Assembly: GCA_000934665.2 (NCBI GenBank)
Contig: JYFJ02003629.1
Span: forward strand, 1-39,691
Origin: Catajapyx aquilonaris
Taxonomy: Eukaryota
DNA length: 39,691 bases
Direction: 5' to 3'
Shown: positions 11,213-39,364 of the stretch, in pieces
Position numbering within the stretch: the first letter of the stretch is position 1
Layout: every line of letters starts with the position of its first letter
Made by a program: the position numbers and the translations under genes
The notes under the pieces: generated by a model
Databases searched by the model: none
What the model was told of the DNA's origin: nothing
Seen by the model: only the letters and a program-made list of their open reading frames with translations

Positions 11213-12525
11213 ATGTGGACTCTGCTTATTCTCACTGTTATGGGTAAGTTAATACTTATTTCATCTCTACGTTGCGACTTAATTTGTATTATTTATTACA
11301 CTTTTATTTTGTGCCATACCTGTCATTAATATTGCTACTCTGTTGGACCATAATAATTTGGCAATGAATTTTCGCCAATAGAAGCAATAATATTAGCCTT
11401 ATTACTATACATTACTGATTACATTCATTATTTGATTTTACTGGTAAGTGAAAATGCAAAAAAAACTTTTATGTCAATATTGTATAACTTTGTTGTGCCA
11501 AAATAATTTGGCAGTGAATTTTAGACCACTAGAAAACAGTAATAAGCAATTGGTGGTACTCATTCATTAGGCTACTGATTTTATGCAGATAACGTGCAAA
11601 TGACCTTTATTTATGTTTGTCATCAGTTGCGTCATGTACCGGCGCTCCAGCCAACGATTCCTCATTGGAACTGTTGCCATTGAACATCAAATGCTCCATG
11701 TTGGTCTACACTCCTGAGGCCAACAGAAACAACAGCTGTTACGTCAACTGCGTCCTCTTCAACAAGGATGGTGGCTACTGCGACCAGGAGGACAACTGCA
11801 TGTGCTACATGGGCACACCGAACAGCAGAGTGACCATCGTGTCTCCTACGCCACCTAAATGCTCGGACATGGACAGTACGTACATCAAGGACGAGGAGTT
11901 GAACTGCTACATGGCCTGTGCAGTGTCAGGGTACTACGGTGGTACCTGCATGGAAGACTTTTGTCTCTGTTTGGAGAACCGGAAGCCTGATATGAAGATT
12001 GACCTTCGTGGTGTTGACCAGTGCAGCCAGCTACAGGAGGTGCATCGGAAGGCTTGTGGGTACAAATGTACGGCGGAGAAACACGTCGGAGGGTACTGCG
12101 AGGACATCGATGGACAATGTCAGTGTTTGTCATTGTCGATTAACCAACAAGTCAAGCATGGTGACCGGATTGGACTTGTGACCTCTGAAGGTGTTGAGAA
12201 GAAGGTGGAGGTCACCCAGCTGCTTCAGGCAAGTCGGAAGACATACTGCTCGTCTCTTCGAGCCATTACCAAGACCCAGAGCAAGAAAGGTCTGTGCTCA
12301 ATGTTCTGCTCAAAGTACAACTTTCACGGTGGGTTTTGCGGAGTACAAGACGAGTGTCTCTGTGTCAAGCATGTCAAAGGTCTTGACGAATTGGGTGTCC
12401 GGATTGAGGATCTGACCACCACCACAGAAGGGTATGACGAAACCTCGACATATGCTCCAGAGTATGACTATTGGGCCACTGAAGATGACCAAGTGCCCAC
12501 AACAATTGCTTCAATTGCTGAGTAG
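11213..12525 (+). CDS. Secreted protein with four tandem CS-alpha-beta (defensin/scorpion-toxin-like) domains and a Thr/acidic tail, about 309 aa
   Basis: Exon 1 11213-11243 (MWTLLILTVM, donor G|gtaagt) plus exon 2 11627-12525 gives the signal peptide MWTLLILTVMVASCTG. It is followed by four C-x10-15-C-x3-C-x9-C-x4-6-C-x-C units, each with GG[YTF]C. AATAAA lies at about 12568. Confidence 0.85.
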
Positions 12526-15595: not shown

Positions 15596-15626
<31 letters not shown>

Positions 15627-15689
15627 TAATGTAAATAACGCTCAGCTGATCCCGTCCTTCTAATAAGCATTTGTTGTCGTTGGCAGCAC

Positions 15690-16610
15690 GGCAACAATTG
15701 TTGCAATGGAAGGGTTGGCATCCTGGGCAAACCAAACCTGGACAAACAAACAGACAAATTCTGCTAGGCCTAGTCTCCTATTAACGTCATGCAATGTGTG
15801 CTTGTTCTTAAAATAAATTTTAAAAAAATGAACATAACGAGTTGGAGGGACGCCCGTTCTAATCATCGTACCACATGGCAACATGTTGATATGATAACCC
15901 GTTGCCATGGTAACCTGGCCAAACAAACGGACAAACTTAGCCTTTTGTTTTGAACCCGGGCCTTAGCGAGGTGTCATTAATTAAATGAAAGTAACTGGCG
16001 CTGGAACGTTGCTCTATGATCATCATTGGTACCGTGGCAACCGGTTGCCGTGGATGTCGAACCTAGACGTGCAAACAGACAAACTTTTCCTTTTCCGAAG
16101 CCAGGTCTCGTGAGCGTCATGCTTTTAACGTCGCTATGTTTAACTGGAAATTACTAGCAGCGGAACCCTGACCTAACGTCACCCTGAATGCCACAGCAAC
16201 GGGTTGCCATGGTAGCTGGACAAACAAACGAACGCACTTGGCCTTTTTTTTCTCGAAGCCAGATCTCGTCGAGCGCCATGTTTCTCTAACGCCATGCAAG
16301 GTTTACTAATTAATTATGTATTTATTAATGAACATATAACTAGCAGCCAGGAACCAAGTTCCAATCATTGATGAAATGAAGCGGGTTGTCATGGTGACCA
16401 AACAATGGACAAACAAACAACCAAACTTGGCCGTTTTGAAGGCAGGCCTCTCGGGACGTCATGAATGGCTTATTATCATTGTTTAAATTTTTATGAACAT
16501 AACTAGCTGCCGAACCTCGTTCTAATCATTGCAGCATGGTAACAGGTTGCCATGAAAACCCGTTGCCGTGGAAACCTGGACGAACAAACAAACTTAGCCA
16601 TTTGTAACGA
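15690..16610. repeat. Degenerate tandem array (about 6 units of 160-190 bp) in the presumed 5' UTR intron of the POGZ-like gene
   Basis: Recurring gttgccatgg...ctggacaaacaaac..acaaactt.gcc blocks near 15740, 15900, 16045, 16203, 16385 and 16562. Confidence 0.75.
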
Positions 16611-16742
16611 TGGAAATGGCAGTTTACACAATATTGTTCAGTTAAAGAAGTTGGGGCGTGATTGGCAGCTGTTTGTAATTTTGCAATGATCTGTTTCAGA
16701 TTTTTCGGCTGAAATTTTGGTTGCTGTGCCAGATTATCAACA

Positions 16743-19700
16743 ATGGTGGGTGAAGTGAACGGCTGCGGCGAGGATGACATCTCGCTGTACATGGAGTGTG
16801 TGGACGAGGATCCGGAGCCGTGCCAGATGGCGGTGTACGAGCGGCTCGTGAAGGAGAAGGAGGCCTTCCAGGCGCAGCTGGAACTGTTGCGGAAGAATGG
16901 GGCGGAGATACTGGGGAAGGCCCTGCAGGGTCCGCGGCCCGTTCAGGTGATCCAGGCGCAGGGAGCCGCTCCGGTCAAGACGACGCAGATCAGGCCGCCC
17001 ATTCCGGTTGCTCCGGTGCCGCAGGGCGTGAGGCAACTGGTGCCGCTTCCGAAAGGGGCCGCGGGTCAGATTATAGTGCAGGGAGCTCCTGCGGGTGGCG
17101 GACAGTACCAGCTGCTGATGGACCCTAACCTGGGCCTGGTTGTGGGAACATTGCCGCCCAACAATGCGGCCGGCACACAAGGTTCGTATGGTTGACACCC
17201 GAGTGGAGCATTTGACGAACTTAATTTATTTACAGTGCTGACAAGAGCACCGTTTACAACAACAGCACCGTTTACAACAACAGCACCGTTTACAACAACA
17301 GCACCGCCTATTGTAAGTATGAACTTAACTAGAATGGAGTTAATTACTGTAATGGCTTAATTATAGGTGCCAGCCAATGCTGTTGCGACTCAGCTACGGC
17401 CGTTGAATCCTGTGGCGCAACCTGTACGACCTGTTTCAATCGTAAGCACTAGTACACGTACTGCTTCGACTGTCAGTACCGGTGCATCATCTGCTCCAGT
17501 GATTAGTGCTGGTATGTATACCGGTAACACATTTTAAAGCAACATTCCGCGTTGACGTTACGATTTGTTTCAGTACCAAGTGCGAATCTGCTTCAAATAC
17601 AACCCAAGGCGCCTTCAGTGTTGATGGTGCCGCAGAAGCAAAGTCTTCTTAAGGCTGCAACACCCGCAGCTTCTGCAGCACCAAATGCAGCACCGCAACG
17701 TGGCATTAAGGACGTACCAGTTGTCGATCTGACGAAAGGAGAAGATCAAGTCGTGGAGGGTGATCCCAAAGTGATAACCACTTTCCGATCTGAAACCGGA
17801 CAAGGAAAGACCTTTCCATCGCTCGTCGTGATGGTACGCCCCTGTCTACATGATAAAATGCCGAAGGGATTTGCTAATGCCGAGCGAGCAAAACTAGGTA
17901 TTGTACTTCACCAAGGGTTCGATATAGTTTTGTAACCTTGTATTGCGTTCGCAGATGTGAAGATAAAGAACGTACTGGTGTACACACCGACCCGATTCAC
18001 CGAGTGGTTGCTTCAGCAAGGAATGGTACGGAGCGAGCAGAAATGCAAGTATCACGTGACGCCTCAGCTATCTCAGATCAACTTTAAGCTTGGGATGTAC
18101 TCGGATGGTAGCCATTTTCCGTACAGCGGCGGCTACGTTTGGATAAGCGAATGCTGCCCGAACCGCCTGGTCTCTGTTTTTAACGGATCCATATTTGAAG
18201 GAGCGCCTCATCCGCCCACGATCCTTCTGAAGCTGATGTACCATTGGGCATGCCAGACGAATGTCCAGAATGTGATTCAGTGGGTCAAAGTGGATAACTA
18301 CTACGTGAAGAACTTTTTCGCGTACATGCGCAGCGCTTGCGTGTCGGCCATACACCAGAAGTTTGGAAAGATGGGAAAGCCTGGAAAGTTTGTGGAAGTT
18401 GGAGTGATTAGCCTTGGAACAACGTCGCAGGATGGAAAACAGCGGCAGGTGAAGGTTGAGGTTCTGGGTGCGTTGGACGTGGAGAATAAGTGGATCCGGT
18501 TGAGAGCTGTCGAGCCGCCTCAGGATTCGGAACGGAACAGCAAGAAGCGGTTCATGAAGATTCTGTCGCCGCTGGAAAACTGGATCGAGAAAAGCAGCGT
18601 TATCGTTACCGACTTCACGATCGATAAGGAAACATTGCATCAGTTGGGATACGCAAACGTCATCCAGAGCTCATCTGGACAGAACATGACTGCACCGCAC
18701 AACAACACTCACATCATGGACTACTTGCGGAAGGTTATTCCAAAAATGTTTCAGGTAATGATGCGGTATTAACGAGTAAGAATAATTGTATGCTCATTTG
18801 CCATTTATATCTTTCAGAACACTCTGTCGCTGCTGACTCGCAACCTGATTCAGCAGTTTTTGGATGAGCTGGTGTGGCGTGAAAGATGGGGCATCGTGGC
18901 GTCCGCTGCGTTTGATAACCTGATAGAGCATATGGCTGATCAAACGAGAGCTGAAAAAGGTGCGTACCGATACGCTCGGTAGAGTCGCAGAGATTCGACT
19001 TAATCTGTCATTTGCAGTCGACACGTTCATCAATCGGCTGAACAAGATTGCGCTCAACCCGTTTCAAGACTGGAGCTATCAGATCCCCGGGAGGGAATCT
19101 GTGAGGCTCGTAATCAGCGGTTCAAATGCGACTCGGCAAATTCAGCCTGGAAATCAGGTGGTGCCTGTGATGCCGAGAAGCTCGATTGATATGCTGCCAG
19201 CGAGTATCCGCGATGTTCAGGTATGCCATACAAATGCGTTTGAATCTATGGAAGTTAATGTGTTGCATTTGTTAGCCGAGACATCCTCCTCTGGCAAGAG
19301 CGGCTGTAAAGCGAGCGTCTCCATCTGATGGCGGCAGTGCTAGTAAAATGATTCGTAAAGAAGACATGCAATCTCTTGAAGCTTACTATTACGGAACGAT
19401 GCCAGGGAATTCCGATCGTGACCTCACCCATCTCAATATTACTCACAAGGTACGACAACTCGTTACTTTTACGAAGCAATGAAATTAACCGAAATTTAAT
19501 TGCAGTGTCCCATTTGCGCCCACCACATGGCGACCAATTTGGAAGTTGTGAAGCACATGATGCTTCACGTCGACCCTTCTTTAAGCGGAGGTGCATTACC
19601 TGCTGCGCCGGTGCAATGCAAATATTGTATGAAGGATATGAGAACTGAAAGCACATTGAATCTTCATGTGGAAGCTGTACGTCGATGAGATCATACCATC

Positions 19701-21553
19701 TTTCCAAATGTTTACTGACCAAATATTTTCAGGCCCATGTTTGCTCCAAAATGACCCACATTTGTCGGATCTGCGATGAGGTTTTCCTGAAGCCCGACAT
19801 GCTCATTAACCACATGCATAAGAACCATGTCGGAAAGGAGATGCCGTATGTATGCGGTGGGTGTGGCTTCCGTGCCTCTTTCCGTCACACATTGGTCGAT
19901 CATTTCTGGGAAAAGCATGAAGGCACGGACGTGGCTCTATGCCCGTATTGCTTGAGGACATTGTGCATTAAGGCGAACCAGAACATCCCGCACTTGTTGC
20001 GCCATTTGCAGGTAAATACTTGGTAAATTCTGCCAGGATTTGGTTGCAAATATTGTCGTTTTACAGCGACATCTGGGCAAATCTGCGAAGCCGAGGTGCA
20101 GATTATGCACCCTCGTCTTCCTGACCGATGGGCACCTGAAGCAGCACAGTGCCCGTGCACATGCCTCGTTCCAAGATCATCTAGGTATGTTACTTTGACC
20201 AGCAACTTGCATGGAGTTGCTCAATTTGCGTCTTGCAGGTGTTTCGCCTCTGAAGGTCCCAGGCTCAAAAGATGACCAGCTTATGCCTCCGCCGCCTCCG
20301 ATCCAAGCTGCACGTATGCATCCAGGTCCGAGGGTCAAACCACCATTCTCCACGTCCCATAATTCCGAACTGGTGTTCTACAGTGTTGAGAAGGATGTCA
20401 ACAAGTGTTACGAGTGCAGCAGATTCATGAGCGATGCAGGACACTACACGTAAGTCACTGCATTACAGTTCGTTACAGACTGTGTCTGACAACAATTGCG
20501 TCCACAGGTCTTACTACTGCTGCGAAAAGTGCCGCTACTCGACTTGCTGCAGGCAGGGAATTGTTAGCCACGTAAAGAACTTTCATTCAAACCGCAAGTC
20601 GACCTTCAAATTGGGACGCTCGACTACGTTGCCTCAGATAATGAAGTGCGCTTGCGGCGAGAATTTCAGCACTGGAAATTCACTAGGTACTTACTTCCTT
20701 ACGTTTACATGAGAGCGATTCACTCAGCGATGCATCCAATTGCGTGGGGCGAAAGTAATGAGTACGTTTCGCTCCCAAACGATTGATTTCATTGCTGATC
20801 AAATCACTCACATGTATTCCTGGCCTAAATCAGTTTTTTTTTCTGATATATGGAATTTCGCGTTTGTTACATACTATTGTTCATTCGTAGCTAAGCATTT
20901 AGTTGAATGCGGATACACCATTGCGTATCCAACGGGGATACCTGTACCGATGGATGCGGACAGCTATCCGTCAGCTTCCTTCCCGCCACTGGTTGATTTG
21001 GACGATCAGACTGAAAAGGATCCGAGCGAAGAGTTGCTGAAGGCGTACGCTAAGAAGGACAACAGCGGTTCGAACAACAAAAAAGAATCGCAGCAACAAT
21101 CAAACGTGAAAGGTATGGAGCGCAACGGAGGATAAAATAGCAGGGGAATTCTTCATGGCCGTGAAATTAATACGGAGATTGGCCAAACGCTGAGTGTTTT
21201 GTTGACCGTTTGCTGTCTTTGCAGATGGGGAATTTCCCAGCATGCTGAATGTGCTGGGGTTGGTACGGAAGTCGACTGAAGATGCTGGGGAAGACGGACC
21301 GGCTTCGACCAGCAAGGAAGCTGGATCGGCTGAAGAAAGTGCTGAATCTTCCGCAGAAGCGAAAACAAGTGCAGATGAAGGGAAAACCGGTGCAGATGGA
21401 GAGAAAACCGGTGCGGATGGAGAGAGAACCGGTGCGGATGGAGAGAAAACCGGTGCTGATGCAGAGAAAGCTGGTGAAGGGAAAACTGGTGTGGCTGAAG
21501 AGAAAACTGGTGCGGCTGAGGAAGCGGACAAAGGCCCGCAAGCATCGGAATAG
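16743..21553 (+). CDS. POGZ: POGZ/ZNF280/Row-family zinc-finger protein containing an internal Merlin/ISXO2-like transposase-derived domain; 15 coding exons, about 1270 aa
   Basis: Exons 16743-17181, 17236-17312, 17367-17511, 17574-17897, 17955-18754, 18818-18959, 19018-19220, 19276-19449, 19506-19676, 19733-20011, 20067-20184, 20239-20449, 20508-20686, 20891-21112 and 21225-21553 join in frame (3813 nt). Family signatures: LYMECVDEDPEPCQ (cf. POGZ LFMECEEEELEPWQ), YYYG, EMPYVC..C.FRAS, LCPYCL, an HPZ-like CYEC...CEKCRYSTCC...SH..NFH, and GNSLAKHLV. A probable non-coding first exon ends at the donor near 15577. Confidence 0.85.
20697..20826. mobile_element. Degenerate MITE (same family as 21948, 22014, 31718 and 32940) in a POGZ-like intron
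   Basis: Imperfect inverted arms tttacatgagagcgatt...aatcactcacatgta are shared with the other copies. Confidence 0.55.
21361..21530 (+). repeat. Coding 21-bp minisatellite encoding (KTGADGE)-like heptapeptides
   Basis: About 7-8 degenerate copies of aaaaccggtgc(a/g)gatggagag in the last exon. Confidence 0.85.
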
Positions 21554-21947
21554 TCCATCGCCAGATATTTCGCAATCATCCAGCAGATTCCTGGCATTGA
21601 GAGATCTATGCTACAAACTAACAATCTTTTGTCTATATCAGTATTCAGTCGAATATTAGGAAACAATTATTAGTGTGTAGCATAGATGCAGTCAATGCCA
21701 GGAACTTGCTGGATGTTTGGACCACATTTTATTCTGGACCTAGTGCGATTAGGATATGATGCAATTCAATTCATTAGCTGGAGCACAAAATGTTGCCGGA
21801 ACAATTTTTGATATAAGGTATGATAGTGGAAGAAATCTCGGCTGTAAATGTCTTGAGAGTTGCATGGTGCCAGTTACGATCCAAGTAATTGAGGGGCTTT
21901 GAATTGTTGCTGAAGGCTCTTGCTAGATCATTCCTTGAACAGTATTA

Positions 21948-23249: not shown

Positions 23250-24350
23250 ACAATTATAACTAATAACAAATAACTAAAGTAACCAAAGAAATATAGCTAA
23301 AATAACTAATTGCCTGTAACTTAACCAATAAGAAATAACACCTAAAATAACTAATAGCATGTAACTAACAACCAATAGAATATAATAGTTAAAATAACCA
23401 ATAGAATTGTTAGCTAAAATAACCAGTAAAATAAAATAGCTAAAATAGCCAATAAAATATAATATCTAAATAACTGATAAAATATAACAGCTAAAATAAC
23501 TAATTGGCTGTAGCATAACCAATAACATACCTAAAATGTAACTAACAACCAATAGAATATGATAGCTAAAATAGCCAATAAAATATAATATCTAAATAAC
23601 TGATAAAATATAACAGCTAAAATAACTAATTGGCTGTAACATAACCAATAACATACCTAAAATGTAACTAACAACGAATAGAATATAATAGCTAAAATAG
23701 CCAATAAAATATATCTAAATAACTGATAAAATATAACAGCTAAAATAACTAATTGGCTGTAGCATAACCAATAACATACCTAAAATGTAACTAACAACCA
23801 ATAGAATATGATAGCTAAAAGAGCCAATAAAATATAATATCTAAATAACTGATAAAATATAACAGCTAAAATAACTAATATGTAACTATGATAAAATATA
23901 ACAGCTAAAACAACTAATATGTAACTATGATAAAATATAACAGCTAAAATAACTAATATGTAACTATGATAAAATATAACAGCTAAAATAACTAATATGT
24001 AACTATGATAAAATATAACAGCTAAAATAACTAATGTGTAACTATGATAAAATATAACAGCTAAAATAACTAATATGTAACTGATAAATGATAACCAATA
24101 ACATACAGTACCTTAAATAATAAATAATGAATAACAAAAAATAACCATAGACGCAACAGCTAGTAATCAATAGTTATTAACTTGTTATTAATAACCAATA
24201 ACAAATAGCAAATGAAGTCTAATAACCAAATTATTATTTAATAACTAATAATTACAATTACGAAATTAATTTAAAAAATAAAAATGAAAACTAAAGCAAA
24301 TAATTACCAATAATAACTAATGCTAAGTAATAGCCAAAACCTAATTAAAT
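23250..24350. repeat. AT-rich compound satellite (123-126-bp unit x about 3.5, then 39-bp unit x about 5)
   Basis: aataacatacctaaaatgta recurs at 23521, 23647 and 23770. tgtaactatgataaaatataacagctaaaataactaata recurs with period 39 from 23881. Confidence 0.9.
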
Positions 24351-38653: not shown

Positions 38654-38723
38654 CGACCTTTGACCTGTCGGATAACCATCGCTGATTCACAGTTTGTTTG
38701 ATAAACTCGAGAGTATATAAAAG
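38654..38723 (+). promoter_or_regulatory. Proximal promoter of the dawdle-like gene: DR1 nuclear-receptor-like element and TATA box
   Basis: CGACCTTTGACCT (reverse complement AGGTCA-A-AGGTCG) at 38654-38666 and TATATAAAAG at 38714-38723. The ATG is at 38760. Confidence 0.5.
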
Positions 38724-38759
38724 CACAGCGTGGTCTTCATTAAGCCGGCTGTGATAATC

Positions 38760-39321
38760 ATGAATCCTCGTGTAGTGTGCGCGCTTGTCATCCTACTAGT
38801 GGTGTTGCTAGAGTCGACAACCAGCTCGCCAGTGGATCGAGACATGGCCAGAAGAACCAACCGTCACAATATGAGGCACCAGAACAGTCGTCACAAGACG
38901 AGGAGGATTCACCATGATGGTGCTGTTGGCGCACCGGACCCGGACATATGGGACAGCACCCAAGAGAACCGAAGACCAGGCGCTGAAGACGACCCTGAAC
39001 CGACGCTCTCAAGACGACGAACATTCGTGGACGAACCATCGGAAGAAGAAGAAACACCGGAAGACATAGTGTCCATTCCATGTCCCAAGTGCAAAGAGAG
39101 TGACGAGGAGCTGAGGCAACTGAGGATCGACATGATCAAAGAGCAGATACTGATGAAGCTGAGGATGAAGGAGCCACCAAACGCGACACTGACGCCATCG
39201 TCTTTGCCTCTGCCTCTCTTCAAAGGCAGCATCCTTCCAAGAGGAGGAGAAACCCTGGAGAACAAGGATTCAGATGACTTCTACGGAAAGACAGAGCAGG
39301 TCATCGTCTTTCCTGAAGATA
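38760..39321 (+). CDS. daw: Exon 1 of an activin-branch TGF-beta ligand precursor, most like dawdle (gene continues beyond the window)
   Basis: Signal peptide MNPRVVCALVILLVVLLESTTS, then CPKC...LRIDMIKEQILMKLRMKEPP...LPLPLFKG...NKDSDDFYGKTEQVIVFP. This matches the dawdle prodomain pattern (CPKC, LRIE.VK.QIL.KLRL, LP.PIF.G, DD.Y) better than myoglianin. Phase-1 donor A|gtaagt at 39321/39322. Confidence 0.75.
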
Positions 39322-39364
39322 GTAAGTTCATTGAACCTTGAATTTGGAAAGGGGGGTGGAAGTC

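Follow-up and report, generated by a model that had tools for sequence, protein, structure and literature searches.

A probable domesticated and catalytically dead IS1595-type transposase domain inside the Row/POGZ-like zinc-finger gene of Catajapyx aquilonaris

We analyzed a stretch of 39,691 nucleotides (nt) from Catajapyx aquilonaris (contig JYFJ02003629.1 of assembly GCA_000934665.2, positions 1 to 39,691 of the forward strand), hereafter called the window, which carries a gene for a zinc-finger protein of the Row/POGZ type. Row (relative of woc) is the insect counterpart of POGZ. A preliminary description, made from the DNA letters alone, had proposed that exons 5 and 6 of this gene encode a Merlin/ISXO2 transposase domain turned into a host domain. 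Our analysis indicated that these two exons very probably represent an IS1595-superfamily transposase that has been domesticated inside Row and has lost its catalytic activity, and we hold both its identity and its dead status at this level of confidence.

The coding part of the gene lies at 16743-21135 on the forward strand and was modeled as 14 exons, of which exons 1 to 7 occupy 16743-17181, 17236-17312, 17367-17511, 17574-17897, 17955-18754, 18818-18959, and 19018-19220, and exons 8 to 14 occupy 19276-19449, 19506-19676, 19733-20011, 20067-20184, 20239-20449, 20508-20686, and 20891-21135. All introns of this model are of the GT..AG type, and the exons join without a frame break into one open frame of 1168 amino acids (aa) that ends at 21135. 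Exon 5 (forward strand, model residues 329-595), which takes one base, g17897, from the preceding exon, encodes a zinc-ribbon-like part, a helix-turn-helix part, and most of an RNase H-like core. The final helices come from exon 6 (also forward), and the peptide FLDELVWRE (18857-18883) within them aligned with YL.EF.WR of IS1595 transposases. Together the two exons correspond to model residues 329-642, a domain of about 315 residues, and the peptides quoted in the preliminary description for 17955-18959 were indeed found in them. The intron between them (18755-18817, forward strand, 63 nt, GT..AG, phase 0) contains an in-frame TAA and lies inside the former transposase frame. In exon 2, an 18-nt unit is repeated 3.7 times at 17241-17306 (97% matches) and encodes the repeat APFTTT.

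Transcript evidence was taken from the contigs of one public run, the kind of which is not on record and which covers the gene in part. These contigs were at least 99% alike to the window in 7/7 pieces and skipped nine GT..AG introns, and for this reason we treated them as RNA-like. The intron inside the domain was removed in a run contig (junction 18754|18818, given as 18748->18812, cut +6), as expected of the spliceosomal intron that had been proposed, and a loose contig end was compatible with a tenth junction, 17312|17367. The junctions on either side of the domain, 17897|17955 and 18959|19018, had no contig cover in this one run, and thus the evidence that exons 5 and 6 are joined to the zinc-finger exons comes from the open frame and from full-length orthologues. 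Since the 14-exon frame is open throughout and orthologues hold both parts in one protein, the claim that the domain lies in frame within a POGZ/Row-like gene was borne out.

When exon 5 was used as a query (266 aa, P0001), 377 longer proteins were retrieved at an E value of ≤0.001, and the best 120 of the 377 shared 59 to 69% identity with it across the whole exon. The best-matching relatives bear the names row, relative of woc, or POGZ, and the named relatives among the matches listed come from mayflies, cockroaches, termites, stick insects, a katydid, bugs, thrips, a louse, beetles, moths, a caddisfly, and flies (species other than D. melanogaster), with a lacewing among the matches listed in a second search (profile A1). 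Among the best 120 matches listed in the A1 search, there were Row-like proteins only, and transposases were not reached. The closest full-length relatives have their parts in the same order as the window gene, and a full-length alignment was made with 10 orthologues. The POGZ-like double zinc finger (PF25429) is present in most of the relatives listed, and full-length orthologues pass at 38 to 49 bits. In the window, this motif is divided by the intron 20450-20507, and its second half at 20509-20685 on the forward strand (exon 13) matched profile positions 22-42 of 43 with an E value of 9.8 × 10−4 and 20 bits, this exon alone thus standing at 20 bits versus a cut-off of 27. Exons 9 to 11 gave weak C2H2 matches. 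No DDE_1 or CENP-B-type module was matched in 12 of the 14 exons, all of those scanned (exons 2 and 3, of 25 and 48 aa, were left out), in line with the absence of a pogo-derived module that had been noted beforehand; therefore, the gene is of the Row type and does not carry the C-terminal pogo module of vertebrate POGZ.

The IS1595 identity of the domain was supported by profile comparisons in both directions. In the Pfam scan of exon 5, PF12762 (DDE_Tnp_IS1595) was the sole family reported (E = 0.021, 15.2 bits), and it was found at an E value of ≤1 in 10 of 20 relatives, with a best E value of 4 × 10−4, while no other non-zinc-finger family recurred. The matches in different proteins span profile positions 27-116 and 64-152 and are collinear. 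Precomputed Pfam annotation does not include PF12762 in any orthologue among the matches listed. For the reverse comparison, 49 bacterial IS1595 loci, in genomes chosen by PF12762, were translated into 346 frames with a minimum length of 100 aa, and a profile built from 40 central frames set 59 of the 346 as IS1595 family members and the 287 others apart. A profile of 52 non-redundant Row-domain rows yielded 34 matches at an E value of ≤1, and all 34 were IS1595 frames (0/287 among the others), the best of which scored 32 bits.

Profile-profile alignment with hhalign gave a concordant picture. The Row domain against 14 IS1595 transposases reached a probability of 91.2% (P = 9.9 × 10−7), and against 46 transposases this rose to 96.8% (P = 2.8 × 10−10) over 222 columns, while controls with a reversed alignment on either side gave probabilities of 0.1 to 0.2% (P = 0.47 and 0.36). 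In a language-model neighbor search, clusters bearing PF12762 made up 24 of the 30 nearest neighbors of orthologue P0123 and 23 of 30 for the second domain copy of a divergent relative, P0243. No NCBIfam match was obtained; a sequence search of solved structures with alignment A1 returned chance-level matches only (E of 0.34 or worse), and no PF12762 match was obtained in E. coli K-12.

Next, we inspected the active site. Residues were counted in 160 rows, namely, that of the window and those of 159 segments spanning the greater part of the domain, drawn from 274 domain matches with short segments dropped. The first catalytic Asp site, placed on VE.D in the hhalign columns, is Gly in the window (VEVG, 18401-18403, forward strand), and across the rows this column holds G in 153, A in 5, S in 1, and C in 1, with Asp in none. 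The second catalytic Asp, placed on i.TD, is kept in the window (IVTD, 18611-18613, forward strand) and in nearly all rows (D 159, E 1). The catalytic Glu/Asn site is Met in the window (HIMD, 18716-18718, forward strand), with N..IM placed on H.N.vE, and the column holds M in 152 rows, V in 3, K in 3, S in 1, and L in 1, with Glu in none; directly behind the Met, 145 of the 160 rows have an acidic residue (D 76, E 69). The preliminary description had read the three positions in just this way. Metal binding by a DDE enzyme requires all three of these residues. Thus, the whole family is taken to be dead as a transposase, because its site would be unable to bind its two metals, and the domain would no longer cut DNA.

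To obtain a fold, orthologue P0123, in which the domain is uninterrupted and 64% identical to exon 5, was modeled with AlphaFold from a 20-row alignment. The model had a mean predicted local distance difference test score (pLDDT) of 88.5 and a predicted template modeling score (pTM) of 0.88, and it placed, in this order, helices, a three-stranded ribbon, three helices, and a beta1-beta2-beta3-alpha-beta4-alpha-beta5-alpha core. Foldseek against the PDB retrieved retroviral integrases, the IS21 transposase IstA, and the Mos1 transposase (E of about 4 × 10−4). In VIA-align, model residues 156-313 were superposed on RNase H-like cores, with SIV integrase at a Z of 8.6 (133 residues; root mean square deviation, 4.1), and Prp8, Hermes, IstA, and TnsB were matched as well, while the ISCth4 transposase aligned to model residues 31-310 (Z of 7.1). 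A BFVD fold search returned the same general integrase/transposase fold and nothing family specific. The RNase H fold for which a structure prediction had been suggested was therefore recovered. On the window, the core falls at 18368-18904 on the forward strand, interrupted by the intron 18755-18817; its limits are approximate, since they were transferred from the model residues of P0123. A two-copy complex prediction of the domain (residues 20-350 of P0123) scored 0.00 and 0.00.

Ahead of the core lies a putative degenerate zinc ribbon (18044-18157, forward strand), made of a C-x2-H pair (codons 18044-18046 and 18053-18055) and a CC pair (18152-18157), and these residues are kept in 143, 140, 141, and 144 of the 160 rows. 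The P0123 model has beta strands at this position, forming a beta ribbon, and Zn_ribbon_IS1595 (PF12760) was not among the matches reported in the Pfam scan of exon 5. The confident part of the hhalign alignment opens before the core, at the second cysteine pair, and then runs through the helical part, where the domain's most conserved motif, LLKLMYHWACQTNVQNVIQWVKVD (18224-18295, forward strand), lies in the helix-turn-helix region. The L, Y, H, and W of LLKLMYHWACQTNVQNVIQWVKVD are invariant in alignments A1 and A2, and hhalign aligned the motif with the helical part of IS1595 transposases. The whole transposase seems to be represented in the original order, with the zinc-ribbon-like part, the helix-turn-helix part, and the RNase H-like core. 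Classical Merlin/IS1016 elements are said to have no zinc ribbon in a survey (PMC8101967), and because a collinear ribbon-like part seems to be present here, which suits the IS1595 elements with a zinc ribbon better, "IS1595-type" is a safer name than "Merlin." Thus, of the Merlin/ISXO2 identity first proposed, the homology to IS1595-type transposases stands (hhalign P of 2.8 × 10−10; 34/34 frames), while the Merlin label is less secure.

Within Row, no other part is as well conserved across insect orders as this domain. Model residues 301-636, which include most of it, share 58 to 69% identity with nine named insect orthologues, compared with 29 to 36% for the zinc-finger region and 17 to 31% for the first 300 residues; a tenth orthologue, that of Nesidiocoris, a mirid bug that evolves fast, reaches 41% in the domain region and 30% in the zinc fingers. 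No inverted repeat of at least 14 nt flanks the domain among the six pairs found in 16000-21500, in agreement with the preliminary description, and no pair brackets 17955-18959 as the terminal inverted repeats that, with an 8-bp target duplication, mark a mobile element would do. Nor was a second domain copy seen, by eye, among the open frames of at least 110 aa in the whole window. The identity across orders, the spliced internal intron, and the lack of flanking inverted repeats together argue for a host domain, and since the triad is replaced family-wide, the earlier view of a catalytically dead host domain gained support.

Several points weigh against this reading and have to be set beside three other explanations. 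That the region is a recent transposon insertion in the gene model, or an assembly artefact, is hardly conceivable; nothing was found in favor of it, and it conflicts with the facts that the domain occupies one and the same position in orthologues from different insect orders, with 58 to 69% identity, that its intron is spliced in RNA-like contigs, that the triad is dead throughout the family, and that inverted repeats do not flank it. Another explanation is that the domain could be an RNase H-like fold of other origin, either another DDE superfamily or an old host nuclease, with an unspecific likeness to IS1595. The Pfam curated cut-off of 27 bits was reached by no single sequence (the best score seen for a protein named row was 17.3 bits), so that the profile search proposed at the outset singled out the expected family and did so below its threshold. 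Moreover, 25 of the 59 bacterial IS1595 frames were missed by the Row-domain profile at an E value of ≤1; the pairing of C-x2-H with CP.C and of S.CC with C..C of IS1595 transposases appears only in a low-confidence extension of the hhalign alignment; and the fold matches speak for the RNase H-like superfamily in general and not for IS1595, with integrases, Prp8, Argonaute, and EndoV at similar Z and with Z values of 7 to 8 being common for any model. Against such another origin, PF12762 alone recurs in Pfam, the Row-domain profile picked out IS1595 frames exclusively, the look-alike clusters bear PF12762, and the hhalign match runs across 222 collinear columns that include the helical part ahead of the core; we therefore regard that explanation as quite improbable.

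It is likewise very unlikely, in our judgment, that the domain is still a nuclease or transposase that works through other acidic residues, such as the E in VEVG, the D residues in TD.T.D, or the D/E after the Met. Several acidic residues close to the former site are in fact kept (E 151, D 159, D 151, and D/E 145 of 160), and vertebrate POGZ retains its own pogo triad, according to PMC7386202. There is also a small chance, raised by the acidic residue after the Met, that the alignment is one column off at the Glu site. The loss of the first Asp is independent of such a slip, however: Asp stands at the first position in 0/160 rows and Glu at the third in 0/160, each residue of the triad is needed for metal binding, and the conserved Glu two residues before the lost Asp, being on the same strand, should face the other side of the sheet.

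How Row came by this domain is a separate matter. The pogo part of POGZ has been dated to within vertebrates and derived from Passer elements in PMC7386202, and if this dating is right, then the two transposase modules were taken up separately; an IS1595-type capture independent of the vertebrate pogo capture is plausible. Alternatively, an ancestral POGZ/Row protein of bilaterians, or of arthropods, could already have had the domain and vertebrates have lost it, without a separate capture in the insect line and without two transposases having been taken up by the scaffold as alternatives, which we consider a tentative possibility on the unlikely side. It would fit with the domain's occurrence in all insect orders among the named matches, down to mayflies, with the existence of several divergent relatives, and with a quick tree in which the window copy falls, with weak support, outside the clade of named neopteran orders. 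It would fit, too, with the Row proteins of thrips: all six of those scanned (P0014, P0018, P0020, P0024, P0026, and P0039) carry a pogo-type DDE_1 (PF03184, 42 to 53 bits) that spans roughly residues 940-1118, with the IS1595-type domain (roughly 361-626) on its N-terminal side and the zinc fingers on its C-terminal side, and hence both transposase modules can coexist in one protein. Two of these thrips proteins are encoded on contigs of 5.8 to 6.5 kb, little beyond their coding length. Speaking against ancestry and loss, every named relative among the matches listed is an insect, and hmmscan of vertebrate POGZ gave only ZNF, HTH_Tnp_Tc5, and DDE_1 in PMC7386202, a weak point, as Pfam misses the domain in insects too.

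As to the donor of the captured domain, the bacterial IS1595/ISXO2 family is related to the eukaryotic Merlin elements, which occur in animals and would be a plausible local source.

Row-like proteins vary in the parts that they combine. Two divergent relatives, P0243 (1455 aa) and P0237 (747 aa), have two tandem IS1595-type domain copies, 31% identical to that of the window, and in a quick tree, their first copies group together and their second copies group together. P0243 has a THAP-like start by eye (no Pfam THAP match was reported) and a POGZ-like double zinc finger at its end, and P0307 (1452 aa) has Pfam matches to THAP and zf-POGZ. A THAP domain (PF05485, 31 to 45 bits) stands at the start of some Row-like proteins, namely, P0030 (Stomoxys), P0161, and P0307. 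THAP is a DNA-binding domain of P-element transposase origin. A search with the divergent alignment A2 returned five proteins and showed P0175 to be a mirid bug protein, which was therefore rejected as an outgroup.

What the domain does in Row can be approached from its partners and isoforms. As PMC9724677 reports, WOC, BEAF-32, and HP1c co-purified with full-length Drosophila ROW but not with a fragment limited to its zinc fingers (residues 736-936), and another part of ROW must therefore carry these contacts. The dead transposase domain would be the obvious conserved candidate. It may have been retained for DNA binding through its ribbon and helices, its RNase H-like core might hold partner proteins or a second copy of the domain, and in this manner it could help to place the HP1c-WOC-Row complex on chromatin; we give a DNA-binding or scaffold role about an even chance.

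Many fly proteins are short forms of 567 to 622 aa that consist of the N-terminal part and the IS1595-type domain only and end some 20 to 40 residues later (P0029, P0087, P0025, P0019, P0076, P0292, P0297, P0301, and unnamed ones of about 570 aa). They end in a conserved basic tail (...KRK or ...KRGRKPKD..), which exon 7 of the window does not have, and two of them are named isoform X2 of row. The fly short form looks like a real isoform without zinc fingers, and as these forms end just past the domain, they suggest that the domain may act without zinc fingers. More speculatively, the Row/POGZ scaffold might have captured mobile-element proteins repeatedly (IS1595-type in insects, pogo in vertebrates, a second, pogo-type DDE_1 in thrips, and THAP in some flies), the insect HP1c complex might be built around two dead enzymes (the Row DDE domain and the Crypton part of WOC), and the domain might still recognize DNA and pair two sites, underlying the reported long-range promoter contacts of Row and BEAF-32; this extended proposal we hold to be doubtful.

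In the full-text literature searched, to which subscription journals, InterPro, and FlyBase did not belong, no description of an IS1595/ISXO2/Merlin-like domain in Row or POGZ was found, although the domain may have been noticed before. Fusions of dead transposases to host DNA-binding proteins are well known as a kind; what is new is the donor superfamily and the gene. For the IS1595/Merlin superfamily, domestication cases have been only tentative so far in a survey (PMC8101967), and the Row domain adds a well-conserved animal case, one that standard Pfam thresholds miss in every orthologue among the matches listed. It matters because POGZ is a major gene in human neurodevelopmental disease and its insect counterpart, Row, serves as a Drosophila model of it. 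A domain of this length, about twice as conserved as the zinc fingers, is a candidate source of those partner contacts for which the zinc fingers do not suffice, and its identity as a dead transposase gives a concrete fold and residues to mutate.

The rest of the window holds repeats and several open frames. Just upstream of the gene start, in 15600-16650, several short open frames that resemble one another occur on both strands, together with an inverted pair (16191-16212 and 16550-16571, 86%), and by eye, from the open-frame list, this region looks like copies of a short repeated element. Directly after the gene stop, a 21-nt repeat array occupies 21356-21519, and frames on both strands (21206-21553 on the forward strand and 21100-21666 on the reverse strand) are open across it, reading, for example, (GEKTGAD)n on the forward strand. 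Further tandem arrays lie at 23286-24082, 27991-28492, 34356-34572, and 98-351; the array units are AT-rich ones of 26, 39, and 126 nt (score up to 841), an 80-nt one, and a 40-nt one, with a 26-nt unit at the window start. By eye, we also noted a 310-aa frame with repeated cysteine-rich units (11593-12525, forward), a charged 254-aa frame (25546-26310, forward), a frame with a J-domain-like HPD motif (30784-31356, forward), a coiled-coil-like frame (33265-34415, reverse), and a signal-peptide-like frame near the window end (38721-39341, forward).

Compared with known systems, the domain is closest to the bacterial IS1595 family (PF12762 with a Zn_ribbon_IS1595 N terminus; ISXO2-like), which it resembles in the order of its parts and in the motifs VE.D, i.TD, H.N.vE, and YL.EF.WR. 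It differs from these transposases in that two of the three catalytic residues are replaced, inverted repeats are absent, a spliceosomal intron interrupts it, it is embedded in a 1168-aa host protein, and its single-sequence Pfam scores are all below the cut-off. With the eukaryotic Merlin transposons it has the DDE_Tnp_IS1595 core in common, as described in PMC8101967.

Vertebrate POGZ and Row are alike in their N-terminal acidic motif, their C2H2 cluster, their POGZ-like double zinc finger, and their HP1 protein partners, and both are host-transposase fusions. The transposase part of POGZ, however, is derived from pogo/Passer (HTH_Tnp_Tc5 plus DDE_1), is C-terminal, and has its triad kept, according to PMC7386202, while in the Row protein described here it is IS1595-type, stands ahead of the zinc fingers, and is, on the evidence above, probably dead. 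The position of DDE_1 in thrips Row differs from that of the C-terminal module in vertebrate POGZ as well. A further parallel is found in Drosophila WOC, a direct partner of Row in the HP1c complex (PMC3212892 and PMC9724677). WOC is described as derived from a Crypton tyrosine recombinase (WOC/ZMYM, DUF3504), a domestication dated to before the bilaterians in PMC3212892. WOC/ZMYM and Row would then both join a dead mobile-element enzyme to zinc fingers, while the enzymes themselves, a tyrosine recombinase in the former and a DDE transposase in the latter, belong to unrelated classes.

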